DNA of 64,000 nt from Synechococcus sp. UW140 (GCA_943369455.1 CALRND020000007.1:115388-179387); one strand, 5' to 3'. Positions 1,917 through 17,918 are shown, numbered from the stretch's first letter. Numbers and translations are program-made. The notes: generated by a model not told the origin, from the letters alone.

Positions 1917-2789
1917 TCAGATAACGGTTGCCATATAGCTAGAGGGAGAAAGCCGGCATGATTCCGAGAAGGCGCCAGAAAGGGTGAAAAGCCGAGGCTT
2001 AATGTTGAATCCAAACAAACGGTAGAGATAATAGCGAGATGTTTCTGACTCCGACACTGCAAGCTCGTTTCTGGATACGAAGAACGGAGTTTCTCGCCCA
2101 TATTTTGTTGTTTTTACTTCAATAAGTCTATCGGCGCCAGTCTCCTCATACGAGAGAATGTCAAAGCCGGCCCCGTCGCCTCGCGTTTGCGATGTGTGCT
2201 CGACTTTCTCGGCTAGCCTTTCTTTGCCAAGGTTGATCAGCCTTGCTCGCTCAAAGTTCAAGACAAAGAGCTCACCAGCATTACCAAGCGAGCGATTACG
2301 CGCTTCTCTCTCCAAGTAGTTGACTGAGATACATGCCCGAGTCGCCTGAAGGCTTCCTCTACTAGGTTCCTTGTCTCGGGGCTGCATGGCTGGAGGTGTG
2401 GTGAGCACTCCCAAAATATCTTCAACTTCCGGCACCACGATCGGCCTGTCAGCGTCTGCGGCCGCGACATTCAGGAGCTGGCTATCAGATACAAGTCTCT
2501 CGGAAACAACGTCATGCAGCAGGCCTTGATAATTGGATCGAGGCTTGTAACCAGTAATATAAGGGAATCCTAGGTCAATCAGTACAGCACTGATATTCGC
2601 ATGCTTGAACTCAACGGACTGCTCCGAACGACCTGAGAGGCGCTTAATCAGCGCGCGCCGGTGAGCTGCTTTATTGTAAGGAACCCCGGAGAGTTCAGCA
2701 GCAAGCATGGCAAAGTAGTCTGCCACGGTTGCTGCGACTTCCTCTCTTGACCAGTCAGTAGCCATTTCTCGAGGCGCGTTGGATACCAT
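1917..2789 (-). CDS. DUF3883-type (NO VEIN C-terminal, restriction-endonuclease-like fold) protein
   Basis: 290-aa ORF in visibly AT-richer DNA. C-terminal GDGAGFDILSYEETGADRLIEVKTTKYGRETPFFVSRNELAVSE..YYLYRLF matches the DUF3883 signature as I remember it. The N-terminal EFKHANISAVLIDLGFPYITGYKP domain is common in HNH/DUF3883 proteins. Confidence 0.7.
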   Translation of the reverse strand: MVSNAPREMATDWSREEVAATVADYFAMLAAELSGVPYNKAAHRRALIKRLSGRSEQSVEFKHANISAVLIDLGFPYITGYKPRSNYQGLLHDVVSERLVSDSQLLNVAAADADRPIVVPEVEDILGVLTTPPAMQPRDKEPSRGSLQATRACISVNYLEREARNRSLGNAGELFVLNFERARLINLGKERLAEKVEHTSQTRGDGAGFDILSYEETGADRLIEVKTTKYGRETPFFVSRNELAVSESETSRYYLYRLFGFNIKPRLFTLSGAFSESCRLSPSSYMATVI

Positions 2790-2844: not shown

Positions 2845-3120
2845 TTGGCCCTGGTTATGGGAGCACCTAGGAACCATCACCGCGAAGCAGGCTGTGCGTT
2901 CTGCGCGCAGGAGGGCAGCGGCCGGGTGCTGCTAGAGAAGGAGCTGGCGCTGTGCATCTCCGACGCCTATCCCGTGAGCGAGGGGCACAGCCTGGTGATC
3001 CCACGGCTGCATCAATCTGCCAGGCCGTACAGCTCAATACGCCGACGTGGTGAAGGTGACGTCAGCATGGTTGGCCAAAGGGGTGGAACGGATGCTCTTG
3101 TCCGTTCCACCGGTGGATGA
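2845..3120 (+). pseudogene. HIT-domain N-terminal fragment, copy 3 (homology about 2872-3010, then unrelated read-through)
   Basis: HHREAGCAFCAQEGSGRVLLEKELALCISDAYPVSEGHSLVIPRLH. No histidine triad follows. Retains a 39-nt segment (ELALCISDAYPVS) that copies 1 and 2 lack. Confidence 0.6.
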
Positions 3121-3910
3121 GGTCAAGACGTTGGCCTGGCCTCCCCATCGGTTAAGGGACGAGAGGTGACTGGAGCAGAACACCAGCACCCGGAAAAGGG
3201 TTGGCTACAGCCACTGCATGCACACGCCGCAAGGTATCCCAGCAGGGGCGATGGCCTGCCGGACTGGCAGTTGACCACGAGCGCCATCGCAGCCGGGTCA
3301 ATCCAGCAGCCTGCCACTCAGGTTTTGTGAATGAAACTGCTAGTCAGATATCCAGATCCTCGTTGATAAGGCGACTTTTAATGCGCTGACCCTTGGCTAG
3401 GATCAACTCCCAGAAAAAAGCCAAGAATCTCCTGGCCTGCGTGAACAAGGATGTGCATAGTTGGTCTTGTAAACGATAGGCGATTGTTAGATTTTACCTG
3501 GGAATGTGGCATGGAAAGCGAAGAGATCGCCGCTCTCAGCAAAGACAACCGACAGACATGGAATTAAATCAAGACATCGGAATGCCTTCAACTGGGTAGC
3601 GGGCCTAATTCAGATTTTGACATTTTCTTAACAGTTAGCCAGGCAGAATGGTGTCCTTCACGGCCTAGTGAAACCGCCCCATTGAACTCCAGGTGCTCGT
3701 TCTTGCATGAGCCCCAACGAAAGACGAAAGGGCAATGCCTAAATTGTATGCATGAGAAGAATCGACAGGATTAAAGTAGATATCCATATATCCATGTCAG
3801 CACTGCTTGACATTGACATGCTAGCCATCAAACTAGATCATCTATCAAAGCACAGCAATTAATCGCGCACGCCGGCCCAAACCAGAGCGAAGCCGCCGTC
3901 CACCAATAGT

Positions 3911-6900
3911 TCACTTATGGAGTTCAATATCAAAACAAACTGTCTCCCCAACACCCTTCGAAAAACTTTCATGATTAAACTTCCTTGGCTCAACATACCA
4001 TACTTCTGAAACACGGGTTGCTGCGGCAAGAGCTGCAAAGGCAACGGCATGAATCTTAGATCCCGTGAGGCCAACTTCAACATTGGCTCCACTTCGAAAG
4101 TAAAGATCACAATAGATCTTCTCGATTTCTTCCAGTGTCTTTTTAAGATCGTTTGATCCTACTTGAATCAAACCAACATTAGCTTCGGCAGCACTTGCCG
4201 CGAGTTCAGCGGCAAACCAAGCTATGCGGCGGCGAGGCGAATCCTTGGGAGGAACAAGTATGCGAGTTGCGTCACTTGACCGAGCATCTAGCAGATGTAA
4301 CAGCCTATCATTCTTAGGAGATGCTGAAGCAATAAGCGCACGCCATCGCTCTGGACTTGCAGCACTTGAATGAACGCTGAAGTGTCTGTAAGGCCCAACC
4401 TCGCCAGTCAATATGTCATCAAGTGAAGCGAGTACATCATTTGATAATAAATTTCCCTCGAGGACCCCCCGATCAACGAGCTCTTGGTTACTTGGAAAGT
4501 ACTCCATTGCAGAGGTATGGACAACTCCAACACGCCGAGTGCTGACAAGGGCATTCATAATCGAGACGAAGATATATGGCTTTGAAAGTCCAGAGGTGTC
4601 TACAATTATAGACTCGCCCTTGATATTGGCCTGAACATCATCGACGCTACCGACAACTATCAGTTCAAGGTTTAAGCTTGATACATACTTTAGAATATCT
4701 GCGCCCTGATTAGTGTCATACTGCAAGAGAATTACCCTTTTAGGAGTAACTGTAGCCAAAAGTCTCTCCGCCGAAGCCTTGGCTCTCTCTTCGAAGCCAA
4801 GAGCCAAAAGCACAGTATCGACATCACGCCCTGCCCATGATTCGAGCACTCCATGGTTGATACTAATTCCAAGAGATGGCACGCATAAACCATCCGCAAT
4901 CAACACGCTTGAGCTAAGATCATTAACTTTTTCGATTATACTTAGTTGCCTGGTTTGGACACGGTTTACTGATTTCGAGATCTTAGTATTCTTGCCATTT
5001 TGCTTTACTAAAGCAGGCTTAGACACCTCTCCTTCCTTAGAACTGTTTGCATTGGCGTCTGATACACTTCCAGAATTAGTCGCCCGACGCGCCTCACTTT
5101 CAATTAATATATTCTTGGCATTCTCTGGATGCTCTAACCACTCTCTGAGCGTGTTTCCAGACAACTCGAATCGATCACGGTCAGAAAGCCCTATAAAGCT
5201 AGCAAGTCCCAGGGTCTTTCTATAAGAAAGCTTGAACTGTAGGACAGGATCATCGTCACGTGTCTTGGTTCTTGGCACTCCACCATCGTAAACAAAGACA
5301 CCAGTATCAAGAAGGTCAAGAATCATACGATATATCTTATCAAAGTCATGCCCAGCATCAACGCGCACGTACAACTTCGTGTATTGTCGCAGTCGCACTT
5401 GGTTTGCAGATAGTTTTAGTAGCTCACCAGCCGCTTGCGCAAAAGCTAGAGCTAGCCCCTTTTTGTGCTGATCACGCCTATTCAGATTATGCAATAAGTG
5501 TGCTGAATGCTCAAGAAAACAGTCAGTTTGTCTCTCATCAGAAACGGGGAGACTGCAACTGTCTCCATCGACTTGCTGAAGAATCTTTTCATAGAGCCTT
5601 AGAACATCGCCGATATCGCCTACGCAGACTGCTTGCAATGCCCGTAGCCCTCTATAGACACGTTTGCGCTCTCTTGAGGTAGCAGAAGAATTGGCAATTT
5701 CTCTGGCAATTACTTCTAGTTCTACGTCACCAAGAACTTCTCTTGGCTCAGCCTTATAAAGGGGATTGCGCCCACTTAGTTTTTGGCCCTTTCTCCGGAG
5801 AATCTCCTCTACAAACTTCATCTTCTGTTGAGTTGAACTCTTCCTCAGAAGACCATAGACTTCGTTTCCGAGATCGAATTCTTCGTAATCACGGTTAGGG
5901 TCAGCAGGGGCTTCGCCACCAGGGGACAGGAGAACACGGTGAAGCGCCTGTGCTTCAGTCGTAATGCGAAAGGCGCAATGGGCATGCTGAAAAAGGAGCT
6001 TTGAAATGACTTCCCGGACAGTATCCTCACTTAGATATCTAGTTGAGACATCATCCAATAGATAAAGAATGTACTTTTGATTGAAAGCCGGTGCCGCTGC
6101 CCTCAACACATCCGCAAGATAACTAAACGCATCTGCGGGCGCCATCTTTAGCCTATAATCCGAGGTTTCATCGGCAAGCTGGAACTGAAGGTCAATCAGA
6201 AAATCGTCAAACGCATGCTCGCCCGAACCTGGAATTCTCTCGAGCGGAATATCTAGTGGCTTCAGTGCATCTCTTAAAAGCATATCAATGCTATCCAATA
6301 AGCCGCCTGATTCTATGGAGCGTAAATGTCGGAGAACCTGTATGCCGTCGCGAAGGTATGCAACATACAGCCTCTCGAAAGGCGCACTGATAGTCGATGC
6401 ATTATCTTGTGGATTGAGTAACTTTTGGCAGGACGAATAAATACCAATAAAATCGTCACTCTTATATCCTGCGGTCATATCATCCGGCGTTGTGGCACGT
6501 GCATGAAAATGCAAGGCACGCAAAAGAATCGTTTTACCACAGCCTCGCATTCCTGTTATTACTTGAGGGCCACGGCCTGACGTCTTTGCCATCCACCTAC
6601 CCTCAGGGTCGAACCATAGGTCAGGCACATGCCAAGACTCAAGAGTTTGAGCGTTATAGCCATCTCCAAATCGTTGCAATTGAAGTGGTACACGCCAAGG
6701 TTCATCGGCTGCATTAACCGCTGCTTCAATAGCAGCTCGTGCTTCATCGCGTGTCATCATTCGCTGTGAACCCGCAGGAGGAGCAAGATGCTCAGCAAGC
6801 CCGCGCAGAGCACTCGCCAATCGATAATCAATATCACTAGAATCTTGGAGCGCCTTGGCAAGAGAAAATAGGTGCTTAGCGATTTGATGCTGGTCACCAA

Positions 6901-7576
6901 GACGATTGGAATCGGAATCGCTTTTACTTGCATCAAGAACTGAACCTAGATCAATCGCCACCGCACGCGTAGTTTCATCAATAGCACTTGATCTATAGGA
7001 TTCTCTCGCAAGACTTTCGATTAGGATATTGCCATCATGAAGATCATTATGGAAGCTTTTGTTCTCGGTAAAATAGTGGAAGATCTCAAATAGGTCGGCT
7101 CCAATCTGAGCCGCCATGCGTGATGTAAGCTTTCGTACTCCGCCTTGCCCTTTAATGAGCTGACCTAATGTAGGGCCTTCTACATTTTTAAGCACCGCGA
7201 CGTGGCATCGAAGTACTGAGTCCCCAAAAGAAACATCTGAATCAAATTTGTCTGTTATGTCAGCTACTAATGTCGAGCCCTCTCCAAGTCTTGCATGCTC
7301 TCTGCACTCTTCATTCCAATCCTTCGCGAAGTATTCGTAGACTTGAGTTGGAACAACTTTGAGGACAACTACTCTGCCAAGCGCCAACTGCTCGGCTCGG
7401 TATACAACACTGTAGAAGCCGCGTGAAACTGCATGCTTTATCTTGTAATTCTCAATCTGACTAGGTTTGTCATGCAATGGCAGCTCATAGGGGCGACCGC
7501 AGGAAGGACAACATTCATTGGGCGTTCTTTCAGAGTAATCCTGAGAAGGACACCAAAAGCAACATAGACTAGGCAT
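3911..7576 (-). CDS. Large multidomain protein: CxxC..CxxC zinc ribbon + protein-kinase-like domain + P-loop NTPase + C-terminal tandem Rossmann-like module
   Basis: Start taken at ATG 7576 (MPSLCCFWCP), which overlaps the upstream stop. Motifs: CCFWCP..CCPSCG (7499-7564); VVLKV Lys; HNDLHDGN catalytic loop (7028-7051); DLG (6944-6952); Walker A GMRGCGKT (6530-6553); Walker B ILYLLDD (6050-6070). Confidence 0.85.
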   Translation of the reverse strand: MPSLCCFWCPSQDYSERTPNECCPSCGRPYELPLHDKPSQIENYKIKHAVSRGFYSVVYRAEQLALGRVVVLKVVPTQVYEYFAKDWNEECREHARLGEGSTLVADITDKFDSDVSFGDSVLRCHVAVLKNVEGPTLGQLIKGQGGVRKLTSRMAAQIGADLFEIFHYFTENKSFHNDLHDGNILIESLARESYRSSAIDETTRAVAIDLGSVLDASKSDSDSNRLGDQHQIAKHLFSLAKALQDSSDIDYRLASALRGLAEHLAPPAGSQRMMTRDEARAAIEAAVNAADEPWRVPLQLQRFGDGYNAQTLESWHVPDLWFDPEGRWMAKTSGRGPQVITGMRGCGKTILLRALHFHARATTPDDMTAGYKSDDFIGIYSSCQKLLNPQDNASTISAPFERLYVAYLRDGIQVLRHLRSIESGGLLDSIDMLLRDALKPLDIPLERIPGSGEHAFDDFLIDLQFQLADETSDYRLKMAPADAFSYLADVLRAAAPAFNQKYILYLLDDVSTRYLSEDTVREVISKLLFQHAHCAFRITTEAQALHRVLLSPGGEAPADPNRDYEEFDLGNEVYGLLRKSSTQQKMKFVEEILRRKGQKLSGRNPLYKAEPREVLGDVELEVIAREIANSSATSRERKRVYRGLRALQAVCVGDIGDVLRLYEKILQQVDGDSCSLPVSDERQTDCFLEHSAHLLHNLNRRDQHKKGLALAFAQAAGELLKLSANQVRLRQYTKLYVRVDAGHDFDKIYRMILDLLDTGVFVYDGGVPRTKTRDDDPVLQFKLSYRKTLGLASFIGLSDRDRFELSGNTLREWLEHPENAKNILIESEARRATNSGSVSDANANSSKEGEVSKPALVKQNGKNTKISKSVNRVQTRQLSIIEKVNDLSSSVLIADGLCVPSLGISINHGVLESWAGRDVDTVLLALGFEERAKASAERLLATVTPKRVILLQYDTNQGADILKYVSSLNLELIVVGSVDDVQANIKGESIIVDTSGLSKPYIFVSIMNALVSTRRVGVVHTSAMEYFPSNQELVDRGVLEGNLLSNDVLASLDDILTGEVGPYRHFSVHSSAASPERWRALIASASPKNDRLLHLLDARSSDATRILVPPKDSPRRRIAWFAAELAASAAEANVGLIQVGSNDLKKTLEEIEKIYCDLYFRSGANVEVGLTGSKIHAVAFAALAAATRVSEVWYVEPRKFNHESFSKGVGETVCFDIELHK

Positions 7577-8822
7577 TAATGACCTCCATTTGTTGGTCCA
7601 AATCAACGGATACCAAGATACTACTAGAATTATCTGCAAGCGTGCTGAAGGCTGATTTAACTCTAGAGATCACATCAACAATGTCAAGGCACGTATCGCA
7701 GCGCAGAGTTGCAATTGGTTGATCTGCAACTACAGCCTCTCCAGGCATGACGAGAAGTTTTACTCCTGCAGGGTCTTTGAAACAATTATGGCCGTCCACA
7801 GTCTGCATAGATACAAGAACATCGCGTAAGCGGGCCAGATTAATCTGAAAGAAACCCGAAGACTCGGCTTTCAAGGTAAAGCGTGGGGCAGAGAGAATCT
7901 GTTTAGTGCGGTCAATAAATACATGGATTGACGTACCTTGAGCTATAAGGTGACTTTCAAATACTCTACGTGCATCGCAAATCATATTTGGAGATAGGCG
8001 CTCTTGTTCATGACGTTCGAGATCGGGACTGTCAGACATGCAAGCTGCCATACAATAGCAATCAATGGAATGATTTTCAAGCCAGATCTCGTCATCATCA
8101 TAAGGCAATAGATTTAACACTTTAGCGAGTGCAACAAGGCTTTCACCACGGCCGATCCATGGCTGTAAAGGAGCCATTTTCACGCCGAGGAACGCAACTG
8201 CAGAAATGCCAAGCAGACGAGCCGCCTCACAAAACATCGTGGCATTCTTTCGTGCCTCCGCTCTTGATTTGCCGAAGTTACCGTGGGAACCTATTCTAAT
8301 ATCTAAACCCACACATTTAACACCTACAGCGAGCTTTTTTGCCAGTAAGCTTGCTGCAGCAAGAACTGGAATTGCCACAGCATCATGTCTACGTCGACAC
8401 ATAAATAGAGACGCATCAAGTGGTGCAAAGCGGCTATCAGCGAGAAAATGAGCGTACCCGCAGTCTTCTATTACCTTGTGTACTTCATCAGAGGCCAACT
8501 GGACCTTGTATCCCTCAAGTGTGCCGAGACTGTCAATCGCACCTGCCGGTCTGCCAGGGACAGCTAGTTTTGCAACTTGAAATCCCATGACTCTCAGCCA
8601 CAGTGGACCCAACAAAGTCGAAAGCGAAGCTGGTCCACCTGTAGATGCGATGTCTGCAACGTTGTAGTGATCACCCCATTGTAGTTTCTCTCCGCTTGCT
8701 GCCAAGTGCTTCGCTAGACGTGCAACTTCAAATGCATCTAACGGGCAGTTGCGTGCCACTTCAATCAACTTTAAGAACTGTTCTTCATCACATTTAGTAG
8801 GTAGCGGAAGAAAGCTTGTCAT
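7569..8822 (-). CDS. Divergent thymidine phosphorylase / glycosyltransferase family 3 (PRT-like) protein
   Basis: 417 aa. DIASTGGPAS (8634-8654) corresponds to the DKHSTGGVGD loop and VPGRPAGAIDSLGTLEGY to SGRGLGHTGGTLDKLE of E. coli DeoA. C-terminal LLVMPGEAVVADQPIATL resembles the PYNP C-terminal domain. Confidence 0.75.
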   Translation of the reverse strand: MTSFLPLPTKCDEEQFLKLIEVARNCPLDAFEVARLAKHLAASGEKLQWGDHYNVADIASTGGPASLSTLLGPLWLRVMGFQVAKLAVPGRPAGAIDSLGTLEGYKVQLASDEVHKVIEDCGYAHFLADSRFAPLDASLFMCRRRHDAVAIPVLAAASLLAKKLAVGVKCVGLDIRIGSHGNFGKSRAEARKNATMFCEAARLLGISAVAFLGVKMAPLQPWIGRGESLVALAKVLNLLPYDDDEIWLENHSIDCYCMAACMSDSPDLERHEQERLSPNMICDARRVFESHLIAQGTSIHVFIDRTKQILSAPRFTLKAESSGFFQINLARLRDVLVSMQTVDGHNCFKDPAGVKLLVMPGEAVVADQPIATLRCDTCLDIVDVISRVKSAFSTLADNSSSILVSVDLDQQMEVINA

Positions 8823-8834
8823 GCTGGTAGTGTT

Positions 8835-9917
8835 TTAATCATTACTTGCAAGCCACGAGTCTACGTCTACTGCTATCTCCTCCTGAAATGATTTCCGAAT
8901 CTCAGCGGCATGAGCCATGATAAATGGGGGAGGAAGAGCATTGCCAATCATTAATGCTATAGCAGTCTTGTTGTTTACAGTAGGGAAGATGTAACCCTTA
9001 GGGAATCCCTGAAGTAAAGATGCTTCCCGCATAGTGACTGCCCGGTTCTGGTCGGGATGCAAGAAACGACCCTTAGAAGGATTGAAGCAGCCACTTGTAA
9101 TTGTAGGAGCCTGTGATCCCCACGACATTCGGCCATATATATCATAGAACCCATCACATCTCCGATGGCATTCAAGTTGTTCATCTTTTGAGAGACTAGA
9201 GCGGCTTCCACCATCATGTGGAATGCGGCCAATCAGATCAAGGATCCTCTTGCTTCGTCGTTCTGGAATGTCATGCACGGGATCACCGCTTGCGCCGGGA
9301 GTAGGCAGCATCCCAATAGCGTCCCGTACTGTATACTTTTGAGGGGAAGGTGGTGCAAATCGAATACTCTTCCCCAATCCAGCAATATAGATTAGCCTAT
9401 GGCGACGTTGCGGAACTCCATAGTCAGCTGCATTCAGAACCCTGTGATGCCCATGGTACCCAAATCGCTTCATCGATCTACAGAATTGCGAAAAGCGATG
9501 ATCATTTTGAAGGCCGGGAACATTCTCAAGCATCACCGCCCTAGGACGCAGCTCCTTTGCAAATCTCAGGAATTCGAAGAGAAGGTCGTTGCGTGCATCA
9601 TCTACGCATAGAGGACGATTTAATGCTCTCAGTTTTGAGAATCCTTGGCATGGCGGACACCCAGCCAATAGGTCGAGTTTTCCTTTTCGTAGTCCAATTT
9701 GCTTCTTAAGGCTACTAACCCCAAGCTTCTTGATGTCTGTGTGAAAAACTCTTACATCTGAGTGATTAGCGCTATATGTTTCTACTGAAGATTCATCAAC
9801 TTCAACAGCAGCAAGAACGCGAAATCCTGCTTGCTTCAGCCCCAATGTCAACCCCCCGCAACCGCTGAAAAGGTCGACCGCAGCAAAGTGGTTGTCAATG
9901 GCTGCCTGATCCTGCAT
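8835..9917 (-). CDS. DNA (cytosine-5)-methyltransferase
   Basis: Motif I FSGCGG (9852-9869), motif IV PPCQGFS (9636-9656), ENVPGL, QRRHRLIYIAG, GNALPPPF. Start set at ATG 9917 (GGAGG 13 nt upstream), 15 aa before motif I. The ORF is open up to TTG 10055. Confidence 0.9.
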   Translation of the reverse strand: MQDQAAIDNHFAAVDLFSGCGGLTLGLKQAGFRVLAAVEVDESSVETYSANHSDVRVFHTDIKKLGVSSLKKQIGLRKGKLDLLAGCPPCQGFSKLRALNRPLCVDDARNDLLFEFLRFAKELRPRAVMLENVPGLQNDHRFSQFCRSMKRFGYHGHHRVLNAADYGVPQRRHRLIYIAGLGKSIRFAPPSPQKYTVRDAIGMLPTPGASGDPVHDIPERRSKRILDLIGRIPHDGGSRSSLSKDEQLECHRRCDGFYDIYGRMSWGSQAPTITSGCFNPSKGRFLHPDQNRAVTMREASLLQGFPKGYIFPTVNNKTAIALMIGNALPPPFIMAHAAEIRKSFQEEIAVDVDSWLASND

Positions 9918-10260
9918 CCTTGAAGTGGTTCCTCCGTTGCCACTATACGCTCTGATCTTTGATTTTTGTCTGATCTGTCTGCATTCATCTCGCGACTGCT
10001 TGCAGGGACACAACATGCCTACGCAATCCCTTCCTTCGCCATTTGCGAAAAGCAAACCCTTAAGCAGCCGTCAGCCATTATCCAAGCCCACGATCTCGTC
10101 GTGCACATGGAGCCGACCCGCAACAGTCAAAACAAACCCTTCTGGCATGTCTGGGAGTAAGGGTCTGAATCAATACAACTTGAGTAATTGATGCCTTGAT
10201 CAGACTCAGAAATATCTGAATGGGTTTAGCCTCTATGGCAATACCAGCAAGATTAAGCAA

Positions 10261-12847
10261 GCTCCGCCCAGCGGATCGACCTGCTCTGCGCCTTCATCAA
10301 GTTCAGCGGCCTGCGCCTGCTCCAGCCGGCCCTCAGCGAGTTCCTGCAGGCCGAGCCCCGCCGCCCGTTGCGGGTGCTCACCACCGTCTACCTGGGCGCC
10401 ACCGACCGCCGCGCCCTCGATTGGCTGGTGGCTCACGGCGCCAAGGTGCGCGTCAGCTACGACACCCGCCGCACCCGCCTGCACGCCAAAGCCTGGCTGT
10501 TCCATCGGCCGGGCCTCTCGGGCGCCACCCTTTCCTCCACCGCCTACATCGGCTCCTCCAACCTCTCCACCGCCGCCCTGCACGACGGCCTGGAGTGGAA
10601 CGTGCGCCTCTCCGCCCACGACAACGAGGGCATCCTGGCCAAGTTCCAGGCCGCCTTTGAGAGCTACTGGGAGGAGGGCGAGTTCGAGCCCTACCGGGCC
10701 AGCGAACTGGAGCAGCGCCGCTTTGATCGGGCCGTGCGCGAGGAGTCGGCGGGGGACGCGGCGTTGGACGCCACCCCGCTCAGCTTCTTCGACATCCGCC
10801 CCTACCCCTACCAGCAGGAGATCCTCGACAAGCTGTCGGCCGAGCGCAGCCTCCATGGCCGCTGGCGCAACCTGGTGGTGGCCGCCACCGGCACGGGCAA
10901 AACCGTGGTCGCCGCCCTCGATTACGCCCGCCAGGCCGGTCCTGGTCACCCGAGCCTGCTGTTCGTGGCCCACCGGCGCGAGATCCTGCAGCAGAGCCTC
11001 GCCACCTTCCGCCAGGTGCTGCGCGATGGCTCCTTCGGCGAGCTGCTGGTGGATGGCCAGCGCCCCAGCCAGTGGCGCCACGTGTTCGCCTCGGTGCAGT
11101 CGCTCGCTGGGCTGGATCCGGCCGACCTGGCGCCAGACACGTTCGCCGTGGTGATCGTCGATGAGTTCCACCACGCCGCCGCCGCCAGGCCTCACCGCCA
11201 CCCCCGAGCGCACCGGCGGCGAGGACATCCTCCATTGGTTCGATGGCCGCATCGCAGCCGAGCTGCGCCTCTGGAGCGCCTTGGAGCAGGGCCTGCTCTG
11301 CCCCTTCCACTACTTCGGCCTCCACGACGGCACCGACCTCTCGCAGATCGAGTGGCGCCGCAACGCCTACGCCACAGAAGCCCTGTCCAACCTCTACACC
11401 GCCGACGACGCCCGCCTGCGCCTGATCCTGCGCGAACTGGCAGACAAGGTCACCAACCTGGATTCGATGCGGGCCCTGGGCTTCTGCGTGAGCGTGGAGC
11501 ACGCCCATTGGATGGCCCGCAAGTTCGTGGCCGCCGGCCTGCGCGCCGCTGCCCTAGATGCGTCCAGCCCCCGGGACGAGCGCGCCGAGCAGATCCGCCG
11601 CCTGCGCTCCGGCGAGCTGCAGATCCTGTCTGCGGTGGATCTGTTCAACGAAGGCCTCGACATCCCTGAGATCGACACGGTGCTGTTCCTGCGGCCCACC
11701 GAGAGCGCAATCGTGTTCCTGCACCAGCTTCGACCTGCGCTACCGCGCCCTGCTCGGTGGCACGCGCGACCAGCTGGAGCAGCAGATCAACGACGGGTTT
11801 CCCTTCCTGCCGGCCGGCTGCAGCCTGCAGCTCGATCGGGTGTCGAGCGAGCGGGTGCTTGCCAATCTGCGCGAGTCGCTGCCCACGCGCCGGCCCCAGC
11901 TGCTCGCCGAAGCTCACCGCCTCGGGCGCTGTTCGCTGGCGGGGTTGCTGGAGGGGCTCGGGATGGAGCTGGGGGAGTTTTACAAGGTGGCGGGGTCGTG
12001 GGCGTTGTTGCAGCGGGAGTTGGGGTGGGTGGCCTCGGTGGAACCCTCCGAGGATGAGTGGCGACTGGGACGGGGGATCGCCGGGGGGCTGCTGCATCTG
12101 GACGACCCCGAGCGGTTGCACTGGCTGGCGGGCCAACTGCAGCGGCCCATCGCGCCCGATCCGGCGGACTTCGATCCCGCCACCGAGCGCCGCTGGCGCA
12201 TGCTGATGGCCCAGCTCTGGGGCAGCGGCCGGCAGCACGTGCCCCTGGCCGAGGCCCTCGTCCGGCTCTGGGCCGCCGCCGACCTCCGCGCCGAACTGGT
12301 GGAGCTGTTCGCGCTGCTGCTCGAGCGCACCGACCACCTGGTGGCGCCGCTCGACTGGGACCGCGCCGATCCGCCCCCCATCCCCCTCAAACTCCACGGC
12401 CGCTACTCCCGCGCCGAGGTGTTCGCCGCGTTTGGGCTGCTGAACGAGGCCCGCCCTTTCCCCGGCCGGGAGGGGGTGTTCTTTGACGAAGCCACCCAGT
12501 GCGACGTCTTCTTCATCACCCTCAAGAAGTCCGAGCGCCTGTTCTCCCCCACCACCCGCTACAACGATGTCGCCATCTCCCCATGGGAGTTCCACTGGGA
12601 GAGCCAGAGCCTCACCCGGGAAGCGTCCGCCACCGGGCAGAGATACATCCACCACGTTGAGCGCGGCAGCCGGGTGATGCTGTTCGTGCGGGAGGAAAGC
12701 AAGCGCGGCGGGGTGACGCTGCCGTTTCTGGGCCTGGGGTTCGCGGATTACGTGAGCCATGAGGGCGAGCGGCCGATGGCGATTCGCTGGCGGTTGCACA
12801 GGGCGATACCGGCGGCGTTTGTGCCGGAGTTGGCGTTGGCGGTTTGA
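10261..12847 (+). pseudogene. PLD-nuclease / SF2 helicase / DUF3427 protein, 5'-truncated with two internal frame-breaking deletions
   Basis: RLHAKAWLF..GSSNLS (PLD HxK), VVAATGTGKT, VDEFHH, then a frame change to GLTATPERTGGEDILHWFDGRI. ..LFLRPTESAIVFLHQL, then a second frame change to FDLRYRALLGG..DUF3427-like C-terminus ending LALAV. The reading frame is open right up to the island edge, with no start codon. Confidence 0.75.
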
Positions 12848-13302: not shown

Positions 13303-13570
13303 GTCGTTGCCCCTTGCGGTAAGCGCTGATCTCCTCGTTGATCTCTCGCCGGGTCAGAACCTCTGGCGGGTCAGCAGCAAGAGCAGCCCTGGCGTCTTGC
13401 AGACGGACAATGCGGTCTGAGGCCAGCTTGTCCCGCAGCAGGCGCTCGATCGCTTCTGGCGCCAGCAGGCCGGCTCCGCTGGCTTCCGCCGCCAGCGCAT
13501 CAGGGAGGGTGATCTCGATGGTGGTCAAGCGTGCACCCCAACCATGCTTGCCTCTGAGGGTAGCCGGCAT
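13286..13570 (-). CDS. Antitoxin partner of the PIN toxin (start uncertain: ATG 13570 or TTG 13528)
   Basis: ..LTTIEITLPDALAAEASGAGLLAPEAIERLLRDKL..EINEEISAYRKGQ. Small, overlaps the toxin start. The N-terminal part of the 152-aa ORF is antisense to helicase copy B. Confidence 0.55.
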   Translation of the reverse strand: MPATLRGKHGWGARLTTIEITLPDALAAEASGAGLLAPEAIERLLRDKLASDRIVRLQDARAALAADPPEVLTRREINEEISAYRKGQRLAAGS

Positions 13571-13595
13571 CTCCGCCCAGAGGTACAGCCCACAG

Positions 13596-14201
13596 GCCAC
13601 GCCGCGAGCAGATCCGCCGCCTGCAGGCCAGCACCTGCCCCTGGCCGAGGCCCTCGTCGGGCTCTGGGCCGCTGCCGACCTCCGCGCCGAGCTGGTGGGC
13701 CCGCTTGACTGGGGCCGCGCCGATCCGCCCCCCATCCCCCTCAAACTTCACGGCCGCTACTCCCGCGCCGAGGTGTTCGCCGCCTTTGGGCTGTTGAACG
13801 AGGCCCGCCCCTTCCCCGGCCGGGAGGGCGTGTTTTTTGATGAGGCCACCCAGTGCGACGTCTTCTTCATCACCCTCAAGAAGTCGGAGCGACTGTTCTC
13901 CCCCACCACCCGCTACAACGACGTCGCCATCTCCCCGTGGGAGTTCCACTGGGAGAGCCAGAGCCTCACCCGCGAAGCGTCCACCACTGGGCAGCGATAC
14001 ATCCACCACCGAGAGCGCGGCAGCCGGGTGATGCTGTTCGTGCGGGAGGAGAACAGGCGTGGTGGGGTGACGCTGCCATTTCTGTGTCTGGGGTTCGCGG
14101 ATTACGTCAGCCACGAGGGCGAGCGGCCGATGGCGATTCGCTGGCGGTTGCACCGGGCGATTCCGGCGGCGTTCGTGCCGGAGTTGGCGTTGGCGGTTTG
14201 A
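13596..14201 (+). pseudogene. Second copy (B) of the helicase 3' end (DUF3427 region), internally deleted
   Basis: About 40 mismatches over about 560 hand-aligned nt versus 12232-12847, plus a 45-nt gap (ELFALLLERTDHLVA missing). At 13596-13625 a short EQIRRL-coding piece (compare 11585-11605) is fused directly to the QH(V/L)PLAEAL region. Confidence 0.7.
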
Positions 14202-15523: not shown

Positions 15524-17299
15524 TCAGGACGAACAGCTGTAGTGGGACACCCCTCCGGCGTTGAAGAATTCCAGGGGCTTCAGACGGTCATAGGTCGCCA
15601 CCAGCTCCGCAGGCAGCGCTTTGTAGGGATGGCGGAACACCTCCTGCAGCTCCCTGACCAGGCCGTAGTCACCCTGCGCCGCCTGTGCATAGGCCGGGGC
15701 GATCAGCCATTCGCGCCAGGTGATGGCGGGATTGACGCGCTTCATCGCTGCCGATGTCTCGCGGGGGTCGCCGGAGTCGGTGACCTGATGCCGCCAGCGT
15801 TGCAGCCAGCTCGTCCATTGCCCTTCGAGCTCCTCTGAGCAGGGCAGGTAGAAGCTCTCCTGCAGGGCCGAAACCTGCTCGGGGATATCCGAAAGCCTGC
15901 GGAAGAAGATCGTGACGTCCGCCTTGGAGGCCACCATCAGCTGCAGCAGGTCCTGCACCAGCTCGGCGTCGTAGCGGATCAGGCCGAGCTTGCGGGCCCA
16001 CATCGCGTCGAGCGCCTGGCCCATCGCTTCGGCGAAGCCGTCGTGGATCTCATCAAGCCTGGCCAGGGCCTTTGGATTGCCCTCGAGAAGGGGCCGCAGA
16101 GCGGCCCAGAACATCTGGTAGTTGGCTTCGGCGGCCACCGGCTGGTTGAAGAAGGAGAAATGCTGCCCGCCGCCGGTCCAGGGCTGGAAGCGGGGGTCGA
16201 ACAGTTCGCAGAAGCCGAAGGGGCCGTAGTCGAGGGTGTAACCACCGGCGGCGCAATTGTCGCTGTTGAAATTGCCCTGGCAGTAGCCCACCCGCATCCA
16301 GTGCGCCACCAGAGACGTGAGCCGGCCGCGGAACAACCCCGCCAGCTCCACCACCTGATCAACGAAGTCCAGGGCCGGATCAATCTCCTGGCGGTAGTTG
16401 CGCTCGATCAGGTGCGCCACGATCATCCGCAGTTCGTTCAGCGCCTCCGGATGGGCACCGCTGCGTGCGCGTCGGGCGAACAGCTCCAGCTGGCCCACCC
16501 GCAGGAAGGACGGGGCCACCCGTGTGCTGATCGCCGCCGGGTTGTCCACCAGGATGTCGGGATCGAACGAGCGGGAGTTCGGCGCATACCAGGGCCGGCG
16601 CACCGTTTCCGATCCAGACACATAGAGCGTCAGCGAGCGGGAGGTGGGCACCCCCAGGGCGTGCATGAACTCCTGCGCCAGAAACTCGCGCACGCTGGAG
16701 CGCAGCACGGCGCGGCCATCGGCGCCGCGGCAGTAGGGCGTGGGGCCGCCGCCCTTGAGCTGCATCTCCCAGCGCCGGCCATTGAAGACGCCTTCGAACA
16801 CGGACATGGCCCGGCCGTCGCCGTAACCGTTGCCGGTGCCGAACGGGCACTGCTGGATGTATTCGCTGCCGTAGATCGAGAGGGCATACCCAGTGGCCCA
16901 GCCATAGGGCCGCATCGGCGCCTGCGCCGCCGTGATGTCACCGGAGAACAGTCGGCGGAAGTGCTCGTCGTGGGCGAGCTCATCGCCCAGGCCCAGCTCC
17001 TGGAAAAGGGTTTGGCTGAGCGCCACCAGCTCCGGCGCCGGCAGCGGGGTGGGCGTCACCGGCACGTAATGCCCGGAGAACACCTGGCGGGGCCGGTGAT
17101 CCTGGCCATCAGCGGTGGCCTGGGGATCCGGCCGTAGGGCATCCAGCAGCGAATAATTCGCCTTTTGGGCAAACCCCGCGAACGTTGTCGTCAGTTCTGC
17201 AGTCGGCACGGTGGTGGACGCTGCTGTGGGCACGGCGGTCGTCACGGGTCTCTCGGGTGTGGCGCGGCCCGGGCAGGGCCCTGACGCTGGGGTCCCCAT
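15524..17299 (-). CDS. selO: Protein adenylyltransferase SelO (YdiU/UPF0061)
   Basis: [64 protein letters not shown]. Start set at ATG 17299, because the longer ORF overlaps the Uma2 gene with Trp/Cys/Arg-rich text. Confidence 0.85.
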
Positions 17300-17336
17300 C
17301 CTGGCGAGCTGAGCCCGTACAGCGCCTGATCCCAGA

Positions 17337-17918
17337 TCAACCGTCCCAGATCTCCGCCAGCTCCAGCCGCAGGCCCGGCAGCTCCGGCTCCCCGTCCAGC
17401 ACCGCCAGCCCCTCCAGCCGCTGCGGTTCGCCGCTGGCGCTCCACACCTCCACACCGCGGCTTTCGGGCAGCAGCAGCCAGCCCAGCCTGGCCCCATTCG
17501 CCTGGTAGGTGTCCATCTTGCGTCGCAGATCCGGCAGCCGGTCCGATGGGCTCGCGAGCTCCACCACCAGATCGGGGCAGAGGGGCGGAAAGCCCTGGCG
17601 ATCGGCGCTGGAAAGGGCCTGCCAGCGATCCAGCCGCACGGCGCTGGCATCCGGACTCAGCACGGAGCCATCAGGCAGCAGGAAACCTGTGGAACTGTCG
17701 AACACGCACCAGCCGGGCTGGAGGCGGGCCCACAGACCCAGCTGCACAGCCAGCTGGTTGTTCCGCCGTCCGGTTTCGCCACCTGCAGGGGTCATCTCGA
17801 TCAACCGCCCGTCCGCCGCCAGCTCCAGCACCGCCTCCGGATTCGCCGCACAGAGATCGGCAAACTGGGCCGGAGTAAGCCGCAGCGCTGCGCTCAGTTG
17901 GCGGGGCAGGGTGAGCAT
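17337..17918 (-). CDS. Uma2 (DUF820) family endonuclease
   Basis: [54 protein letters not shown] is typical of the cyanobacterial Uma2 family. Confidence 0.8.

Follow-up and report, generated by a model that had tools for sequence, protein, structure and literature searches.

A thymidine phosphorylase-fold protein coupled to a kinase–AAA+–CARF giant in a candidate anti-phage module

The stretch of Synechococcus sp. UW140 DNA analysed in this work (GCA_943369455.1 CALRND020000007.1:115388-179387; 64,000 nucleotides, called the window below) contains a three-gene operon, all on the minus strand, in the order MT, TP-like, BIG. MT is a C5 cytosine methyltransferase, TP-like is the product of 7569-8822, which has the fold of thymidine phosphorylase (TP) and pyrimidine-nucleoside phosphorylase (PyNP), and BIG is its giant partner. 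Comparison of loci showed TP-like to be, as judged from gene arrangement, an obligate and translationally coupled upstream partner of BIG, and the pair to travel, in most of the islands compared, with a C5 methyltransferase in a defence-island setting. The operon and its cassette comprise:

7569-8822, minus strand: TP-like, a TP/PyNP-fold protein of 417 residues, member of a distinct clade
8835-9917, minus strand: MT, 360 residues from its ATG, leading the three-gene operon (Pfam DNA_methylase, 2e-60)
3911-7576, minus strand: BIG, 1221 residues, matching PADLOC PDLC01925 'CARF6--CARF_STK_AAA' over its full length with 1137 bits
7569-7576, minus strand: the 8-nt overlap ATGCCTAG between the TAG stop of TP-like and the ATG of BIG
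about 3300-10200, no strand: the low-GC cassette bearing the MT–TP–BIG operon, 43-51% G+C

The ATG of TP-like lies 12 nt after the stop codon of MT. The mechanical open reading frame (ORF) of MT reaches 10055, the 360-residue gene call having been made in locus L001, which is the sequence of the window; its PADLOC match is MTase_II/DruM. At the junction with BIG, a GGAGG Shine-Dalgarno sequence is found 7 nt upstream of the ATG of BIG, inside the final codons of TP-like. In 7577-7600, and likewise at homologous junctions elsewhere, the 'MEV' codons conserved at the C-terminal end of TP-like (ATGGAGGT) also serve as the Shine-Dalgarno sequence of BIG, and this double use of the codons may explain the conserved C-terminal tail of TP-like (E413).

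Such coupling was indeed observed far beyond the window. The scan, limited to one genome per species, gave 80 loci, and context was counted over 81 genome loci. TP-like loci occur in Verrucomicrobiota, Acidobacteriota, Desulfobacterota, Pseudomonadota, Bacteroidota, Actinomycetota, Bacillota, Planctomycetota and Nitrospinota, and in one archaeon. BIG directly followed TP-like in 78 of the 81 loci, the exceptions being contig ends; three loci were convergent. Among 120 junctions, the TP-like stop and the BIG start overlapped in 95, by exactly 8 nt, as in the window, in 65, and were separated by more than 30 nt in just 3. In line with this, pairwise distances in TP-like and BIG were correlated with r = 0.80, compared with about 0.51 for either protein and MT. 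The original prediction had placed TP-like in a defence-like operon, its stop overlapping the start of a kinase/NTPase gene with which it would be co-expressed, and the overlap, the PADLOC match of BIG and the near-constant pairing all bear it out. Homologues scattered in salvage contexts, which that prediction had named as evidence that would tell against it, were looked for among the recurring neighbour families of the 81 loci and not found.

The methyltransferase was counted in 48 complete loci, each flanked by 8 kb or more on either side, the screen covering only the C5-cytosine class: a C5 methylase was located within 10 kb in 43 of them. Many operons are exactly MT–TP–BIG or TP–BIG–MT, with no restriction enzyme, and no recognisable nuclease was seen in the minimal MT–TP–BIG operon. 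Neighbour families were annotated for clusters present in at least 5 of the 81 loci. These comprised BIG, the methylase, Vsr and restriction/BREX-type genes, and at this level no salvage family (deo/cdd/nup), no nucleotide cyclase, Cas10 or other small-molecule enzyme and no CRISPR-associated gene family recurred. Other loci add Vsr, a set made of Z1, HATPase_c_3, DUF4420 and AIPR, a UvrD–PD-(D/E)XK protein, or AAA_15/21 ATPases, and one adjoins GmrSD. Four loci stand directly downstream of BREX genes in one strand block (L002/L003, L021, L027, L057), the genes upstream of MT–TP–BIG there being PglX-like, PglZ and BrxL; in these loci the operon may be a BREX-associated accessory. In L035 (5337-9789), a TP–BIG pair devoid of methylase comes directly after Tn7-like genes (Mu-transposase/rve, TniB, TniQ) and is probably transposon cargo. 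With its patchy spread over phyla, its defence-island neighbours and its low-GC island, the whole looks like a candidate anti-phage module and not like nucleoside salvage.

The dependence between the two coupled genes was clearly asymmetric. When metagenomes were searched from the BIG side, TP-like was present in 57 of the 68 loci with enough upstream DNA and absent from 11, which are scattered over the BIG tree. None of the TP-less BIGs has lost a residue of the kinase, Walker or CARF motifs, and no replacement effector was seen in their loci. BIG thus appears as the core of the system, and TP-like as a dependent and repeatedly dispensable component: TP-like was shown to be essentially never found without BIG, whereas BIG can persist without TP-like. 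Several of the TP-less loci are directly coupled MT–BIG pairs, so the link to the C5 methylase belongs to BIG rather than to TP-like. Direct coupling of the methylase to BIG in the absence of TP-like was observed in L095, L127 (with a 4-nt overlap), L135 and L149, and such loci may represent a two-gene form of the system.

Concerning the protein itself, a phmmer search against the sequences of the PDB aligned residues 32-391 of TP-like to residues 54-414 of PyNP 1BRW (E 5e-19), the N-terminus being about 22 residues shorter than that of PyNP and lacking the multimerisation extension of archaeal AMP phosphorylase. An AlphaFold2 model built from 42 homologues reached a predicted local distance difference test score (pLDDT) of 91.8 and a predicted template-modelling score (pTM) of 0.92. 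Foldseek then returned human TP, PyNP, E. coli TP and archaeal AMP phosphorylase as neighbours, with template-modelling (TM) scores of 0.72-0.76 and 19-22% identity, the alignments with 2J0F, 1BRW and 1TPT exceeding 400 columns; the match to the AMP phosphorylase structure 4GA5 was generic only, and TM to anthranilate phosphoribosyltransferase (TrpD) structures was about 0.46. The whole three-domain NP-II fold (alpha-domain, alpha/beta domain and PYNP_C) is thereby confirmed at the level of the predicted model, in accordance with the TP fold and C-terminal PYNP-like part originally proposed.

Among the proteins with this fold, TP-like forms a clade of its own, and a fairly large one, in the NP-II superfamily. 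It scored below the cut-offs of NCBIfam TP (NF004490, 100.4 vs 269 bits; TIGR02643, 71.9 vs 570.7 bits), NCBIfam PyNP (TIGR02644, 88.8 vs 409 bits), AMP phosphorylase (TIGR03327, 41.1 vs 535 bits) and Pfam Glycos_transf_3 (PF00591, 20.7 vs 27 bits). Conversely, a hidden Markov model (HMM) of the TP-like family gave at least 397 bits with its members, compared with 138 for PyNP and 118 for DeoA, and did not match E. coli TrpD or YbiB at E<=10. More than 400 homologues were found, and when 1.84 billion representatives were searched with a profile, 564 members were retrieved at E<=1e-30 (clusters at 50% identity, hence at least 564), which argues for a real gene under purifying selection. The TP-like protein had no match in PADLOC, being absent as a component from PADLOC-DB v2, nor in PHROGs, nor to PF01048 (PNP_UDP_1, NP-I). 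Relatives of TP-like or BIG were not found in IMG/VR, nor structural relatives in BFVD, and a phage origin was dismissed on these grounds; a plasmid origin was likewise dismissed, PLSDB containing no match to either protein at 1e-20. A DNA-binding role by analogy with TrpD2/YbiB was also set aside, the family having a median net charge of -3, hence not basic, and YbiB lying outside the family HMM. N-terminal extensions of 110-206 residues were noted in three homologues, P0218 (580 residues), P0250 (515 residues) and P0228 (459 residues); no Pfam domain was matched in them, and they could be mis-called starts or fused domains.

The active site was mapped by aligning TP-like to DeoA of E. coli K-12, and conservation was counted in 245 family members. 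The DeoA residues considered were the phosphate ligands K84, S86, S95, S113 and T123, the catalytic H85 and the pyrimidine-binding R171, S186 and K190. The corresponding features of the window are:

8634-8654, minus strand: DIASTGG motif, residues 57-63, equivalent to DeoA D83-K84-H85-S86-T87-G88-G89
8511-8573, minus strand: rewritten phosphate loop AKLAVPGRPAGAIDSLGTLEG, residues 84-104
8511-8555, minus strand: GRPAGAIDSLGTLEG, residues 90-104 of TP-like
8334-8396, minus strand: retained pyrimidine pocket, residues 143-163, with R143, S158, K162 and K163 each 99-100% conserved (n=245)
8271-8288, minus strand: family-specific SHGNFG loop, whose DeoA counterpart is S-GAFM

On the phosphate side, K84 is replaced by I58, H85 by A59, S113 by A87, R115 by P89, H119 by R91 and T123 by A95; Y168 and K204 are replaced by F140 and R176. 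The Gly-rich phosphate loop has lost two residues and the alpha-domain about 17 relative to DeoA. Across the family, position 84 is always V/I/L/F, 85 is A/P/S, and 113 and 123 are G/A. The family as a whole has thus lost the catalytic His together with three of the five phosphate ligands, the remaining ligands being S86 (S60) and S95 (as T69). The changes are shared by the 245 members and are not peculiar to the copy in the window. By contrast, the base-binding side is kept: R171, S186 and K190 correspond to R143, S158 and K162, present in 245/245 members, and the equivalent of D164 (D136) is conserved at 100%. Also kept are D125 (D97), F210 (F183) and T87 (T61), the equivalents of S86 and T87 being at least 98% conserved. 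At the position of DeoA M111, TP-like has K85, which is the PyNP state (Lys108 equivalent), and conservation persists on the catalytic side at S60, T61, T69 and K85. New residues that are invariant or at least 97% conserved include R91, P92, H125, R176, N182, Q220, R225, E227, H251, C255, R333, D350 and R374; R91-P92 forms a new invariant pair in the phosphate loop, and the SHGNFG loop has an inserted H180 relative to DeoA, with N182 in 242/245 and F183 in 226/245 members. As read from this alignment, the base pocket is kept, and the nucleophile and phosphate side is rebuilt, not merely decayed.

The replacement of the Lys-His of the DKHSTGG loop by Ile-Ala had been correctly recognised in the original prediction. 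The motif DIASTGG lies at 8634-8654; the ten-residue string DIASTGGPAS, to which these coordinates had been given there, spans 8625-8654, a small slip. The substrates suggested there, namely a nucleotide, a modified base or a signalling molecule, are guesses. The further claim that TP-like is not a salvage enzyme is considered below. That prediction did not contain the intact base-binding triad, the tandem CARF domains of the partner or the asymmetric dependence.

Could TP-like nevertheless be an ordinary salvage thymidine or pyrimidine-nucleoside phosphorylase, present in the island by chance? Its fold and base-binding residues are those of TP/PyNP, and some source annotations indeed name homologues 'thymidine phosphorylase'. 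However, it falls below every curated cut-off, with a large family-HMM score gap to DeoA and PyNP, its phosphate and catalytic residues are replaced, and the genomic context, with BIG as the regular partner and salvage genes not recurring, argues against a salvage role. We consider this explanation barely credible; that TP-like is not a salvage thymidine phosphorylase is supported by the alignments and gene neighbourhoods, as originally claimed.

The same residue pattern may be read as that of a non-catalytic sensor or scaffold, a pseudo-enzyme which would bind a pyrimidine nucleoside or nucleotide (for example a phage-specific modified pyrimidine) or simply dimerise, and thereby gate or assemble BIG. 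The loss of His85, K84, S113 and T123 in 245/245 members while the base-binding residues are invariant is in line with this, as is the partial deletion of the alpha-domain; R333, D350 and R374, invariants of the C-terminal domain, might form a protein interface, and the gene arrangement suggests a stoichiometric subunit. Yet about a dozen new fixed polar residues resemble a re-engineered active site rather than a relic, and the catalytic side still conserves the four residues listed above (S60, T61, T69, K85). Such a role is, in our view, unlikely.

The partner giant offers further indications. Besides its PADLOC match, BIG matches Pfam ORC-CDC6-like (4e-27), and its motifs, all on the minus strand, are distributed as follows:

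7496-7564, minus strand: N-terminal Zn ribbon
7355-7369, minus strand: Ser/Thr-kinase VAIK-Lys
7028-7051, minus strand: kinase HxDxxxxN
6941-6958, minus strand: kinase DLG
6530-6553, minus strand: AAA+/ORC-Cdc6-like Walker A GMRGCGKT, with an internal Arg
6044-6067, minus strand: Walker B
about 3914-4879, minus strand: tandem CARF-like Rossmann domains (AlphaFold2 pLDDT 86.7)
4577-4603, minus strand: CARF signature VDTSGLSKP
4043-4072, minus strand: second CARF motif GLTGSKIHAV

The kinase and Walker motifs and the Zn ribbon are at least 98% conserved, and a middle region lies between the AAA+ part and the C-terminal CARF. The C-terminal part, about 320 residues, was modelled as two Rossmann-like domains, for which the best Foldseek match was Can1 (6SCE, E 8.6e-7), followed by the CARF domains of Csm6 and Cam1; D993 and K999, within the signature [DN]x[ST]xxx[RK], are near-invariant. 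An architecture made of a Zn ribbon, a S/T/Y kinase, AAA+, CARF and wHTH was described by Makarova et al. (2014, PMC4012209), the available part of that text presenting a 'small family' whose CARF domain may provide the input of a kinase pathway and making no mention of a phosphorylase-like or methylase partner. As a side observation, the BIG gene is interrupted in L040 (11928-14363) by an insertion of about 2.4 kb between the kinase and AAA+ parts, and BIG ORFs are split in L028 and L076; these interruptions may be insertion sequences or pseudogenes.

The presence of tandem CARF domains with the conserved [DN]x[ST]xxx[RK] signature raises the possibility that TP-like takes part in the metabolism of a CARF ligand: it would make a small ribosyl- or nucleoside-type molecule, through glycosyl transfer or base exchange at C1', or destroy one as an off-switch or noise filter, and the CARF of BIG would read that molecule. 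This explanation is attractive because no cyclase or other small-molecule enzyme recurs in the 81 loci, and it is consistent with the overlap and co-evolution of the two genes; a role as regulator or degrader would also fit the occasional absence of TP-like. On the other hand, TP-less BIGs keep all their CARF motif residues, so the ligand cannot come only from an adjacent TP-like protein, and the 11 loci concerned weaken the idea of TP-like as sole generator of the signal. Known CARF ligands are cyclic oligoadenylates, which are beyond the reach of NP-II chemistry, and the conserved pocket of TP-like is of the pyrimidine type. We regard this explanation, the main rival of the one favoured below, as doubtful, while giving it serious weight.

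The frequent methyltransferase suggests yet another link, in which TP-like would work together with MT. Its target would be a 5-methylcytosine or thymine base within DNA, which it would flip, excise or exchange, or else the 5-methyl-dC/dT nucleotides set free from host DNA that carries methylation; MT would then be mechanistically integral to the system. The C5 methylase found near most complete loci, and the many three-gene operons devoid of restriction enzyme, are in line with it, and the natural base of TP is itself a 5-methylpyrimidine. Several observations oppose it, however. The tie to the methylase is that of BIG, as the MT–BIG pairs indicate; a C5 methylase is missing from the 10-kb surroundings in 5 of the 48 complete loci; MT co-evolves less tightly (r about 0.5); the TP-like family is not basic; and the Arg/Ser/Lys triad suits the O4/O2 carbonyls rather than the N4 amino group of cytosine. 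It therefore seems to us very unlikely.

The reading that we favour, though tentatively and as a possibility rather than a probability, is that TP-like is a pyrimidine nucleos(t)ide N-glycosidase or transferase under kinase/CARF control, acting as an accessory catalytic arm of BIG. TP-like would bind a thymine- or uracil-type nucleoside or nucleotide through its retained pocket and would no longer perform ordinary phosphate-dependent phosphorolysis. BIG, triggered through its AAA+/CARF inputs, would act on TP-like by complex formation or by phosphorylation by its kinase, and activated TP-like would break the N-glycosidic bond in a pyrimidine nucleos(t)ide, or transfer it, so that a nucleotide pool needed by the invader would be depleted or altered. 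MT, for its part, might mark self DNA or supply DNA recognition to BIG.

Several points weigh against this proposal. The substrate and the reaction attributed to TP-like are guesses, and with His85 and Lys84 gone, catalysis may just as well have been lost. S60, T69 and K85, which are kept, and R91, which is gained, may allow binding of an anion, even phosphate, and perhaps some phosphorolysis. TP-less BIG loci show no replacement effector, so TP-like is not the sole output and might be a regulator. A translationally coupled gene upstream of its partner is to be expected of a stoichiometric subunit no less than of a toxic effector, and the module as a whole is only a candidate for a defence role. 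A more novel reading, which we hold to be distinctly unlikely, is that TP-like, through its pyrimidine pocket and rewritten nucleophile site, carries out base exchange or transglycosylation at C1' of a pyrimidine nucleos(t)ide, its product being a new second messenger of non-cyclase origin for the tandem CARF of BIG, wired to self-marking by 5-methylcytosine; CARF ligands would then arise by a route not described before.

The surroundings of the operon suggest repeated insertion at this site. The flanks of the low-GC cassette have 66-70% G+C on the right-hand side and 52-62% on the left, where a second cassette is found, with the following gene:

1917-2789, minus strand: NOV_C/DUF3883 nuclease-like gene, PADLOC candidate PDC-S36 (5e-111)

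Its G+C content of 52% is unlike both the high-GC host DNA and the MT–TP–BIG cassette, and the 90%-identity cluster of its product includes Synechococcus/Synechococcaceae proteins, a hint of a picocyanobacterial origin of the high-GC host DNA. Three direct copies of one gene fragment, 87-92% identical and carrying HNH and HIT-domain coding pieces, occur at 1-264, 1330-1593 and 2873-3007 and bracket the successive cassettes, the NOV_C gene in one and MT–TP–BIG in the next; they look like serial insertions at one hotspot, each re-duplicating the end of the target gene. The NOV_C/DUF3883 protein was considered as the nuclease of the system and rejected, belonging as it does to a separate insertion cassette in the window; a homologue adjoins the operon in just one other distinct locus (L034, L001 being the window itself), and it is probably outside the system. 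To the right of the island, in a high-GC stretch, two ORFs on the plus strand (11558-12847 and 13338-14201) contain DUF3427, a frequent fusion partner of helicase/nuclease defence proteins. A homologue of the SelO protein adenylyltransferase (15524-17650, minus strand, Pfam 9e-66), in high-GC host DNA, is probably unrelated to the island.

As for the scope of these results, the TP-like clusters at 50% identity number at least 564, and the module is spread widely, over more than ten phyla and one archaeon. We know of no case in which an NP-II fold has been tied to prokaryotic immunity, and none was found in the literature searched. If TP-like depletes pyrimidine nucleotides, both its fold and the pool that it attacks would be additions to depletion-based immunity; should it make or break a CARF ligand, a cyclase-free CARF pathway would be at hand. 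The combination of a retained base pocket with a rewritten phosphate site lends itself to clear and cheap hypotheses for mutagenesis and liquid chromatography-mass spectrometry. No paper linking a TP-like protein to the BIG/MT module was found in the full-text literature searched, whose coverage does not extend to the 2020 CARF classification (PMC7498327).

In comparison with known proteins, TP-like has in common with the NP-II TP/PyNP enzymes (DeoA, Geobacillus PyNP 1BRW, human TP) the fold, the STGG strand, the Arg/Ser/Lys triad and the equivalents of Asp164 and Phe210. It differs from them by the replacement of K84, H85, S113, R115 and T123, by its shortened loop and Arg-Pro pair, and by its position beside a kinase–AAA+–CARF giant, with no recurring salvage operon. 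BIG, on its side, is a full-length member of the giant family of PADLOC PDLC01925 and PMC4012209 (Zn ribbon, P-loop Arg, CARF). This family was known by its architecture; what appears to be new, as judged from PADLOC v2 and the full-text literature searched, is the TP-like clade, its near-universal coupling to BIG and the three-gene MT–TP–BIG unit.

With the cyclic oligoadenylate effectors of type III CRISPR systems (Can1, Csm6), BIG has in common the tandem CARF fold, which, on the basis of the model, would imply regulation by a small nucleotide ligand. By contrast, a kinase and an AAA+ ATPase stand in BIG where those effectors have a nuclease, and neither Cas10 nor a cyclase recurs around it. 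The combination found in MT–TP–BIG, namely a methylase, a Ser/Thr kinase, a P-loop ATPase and an enzyme with a phosphate- or nucleotide-metabolism fold, is also similar to that of BREX type 2/Pgl (PglW kinase, PglX methylase, PglY ATPase, PglZ phosphatase). Unlike the latter, the module itself has no PglZ or PglX homologues, its methylase is a C5-cytosine and not an N6-adenine enzyme, and its kinase and ATPase are fused with CARF.

A functional parallel may be seen in the ATP nucleosidase effectors Cap17 and Detocs DtcC, in which a salvage phosphorylase fold became an immune effector that cleaves nucleotides and is controlled by a phospho-relay (10.1101/2023.01.24.525353). Here too, a nucleoside-salvage phosphorylase fold is found in a candidate defence module under a phospho-signalling or nucleotide-sensing partner, and the chemistry predicted for TP-like by analogy would also be the N-glycosidic cleavage of a free nucleotide. 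The likeness is one of functional analogy, since Cap17 and DtcC are adenine-specific NP-I enzymes (PNP_UDP_1), whereas TP-like is an NP-II protein with a pyrimidine pocket and a predicted activity. The controllers differ as well, a His-kinase relay or a CD-NTase in those systems and a Ser/Thr kinase–AAA+–CARF fusion in the present one.

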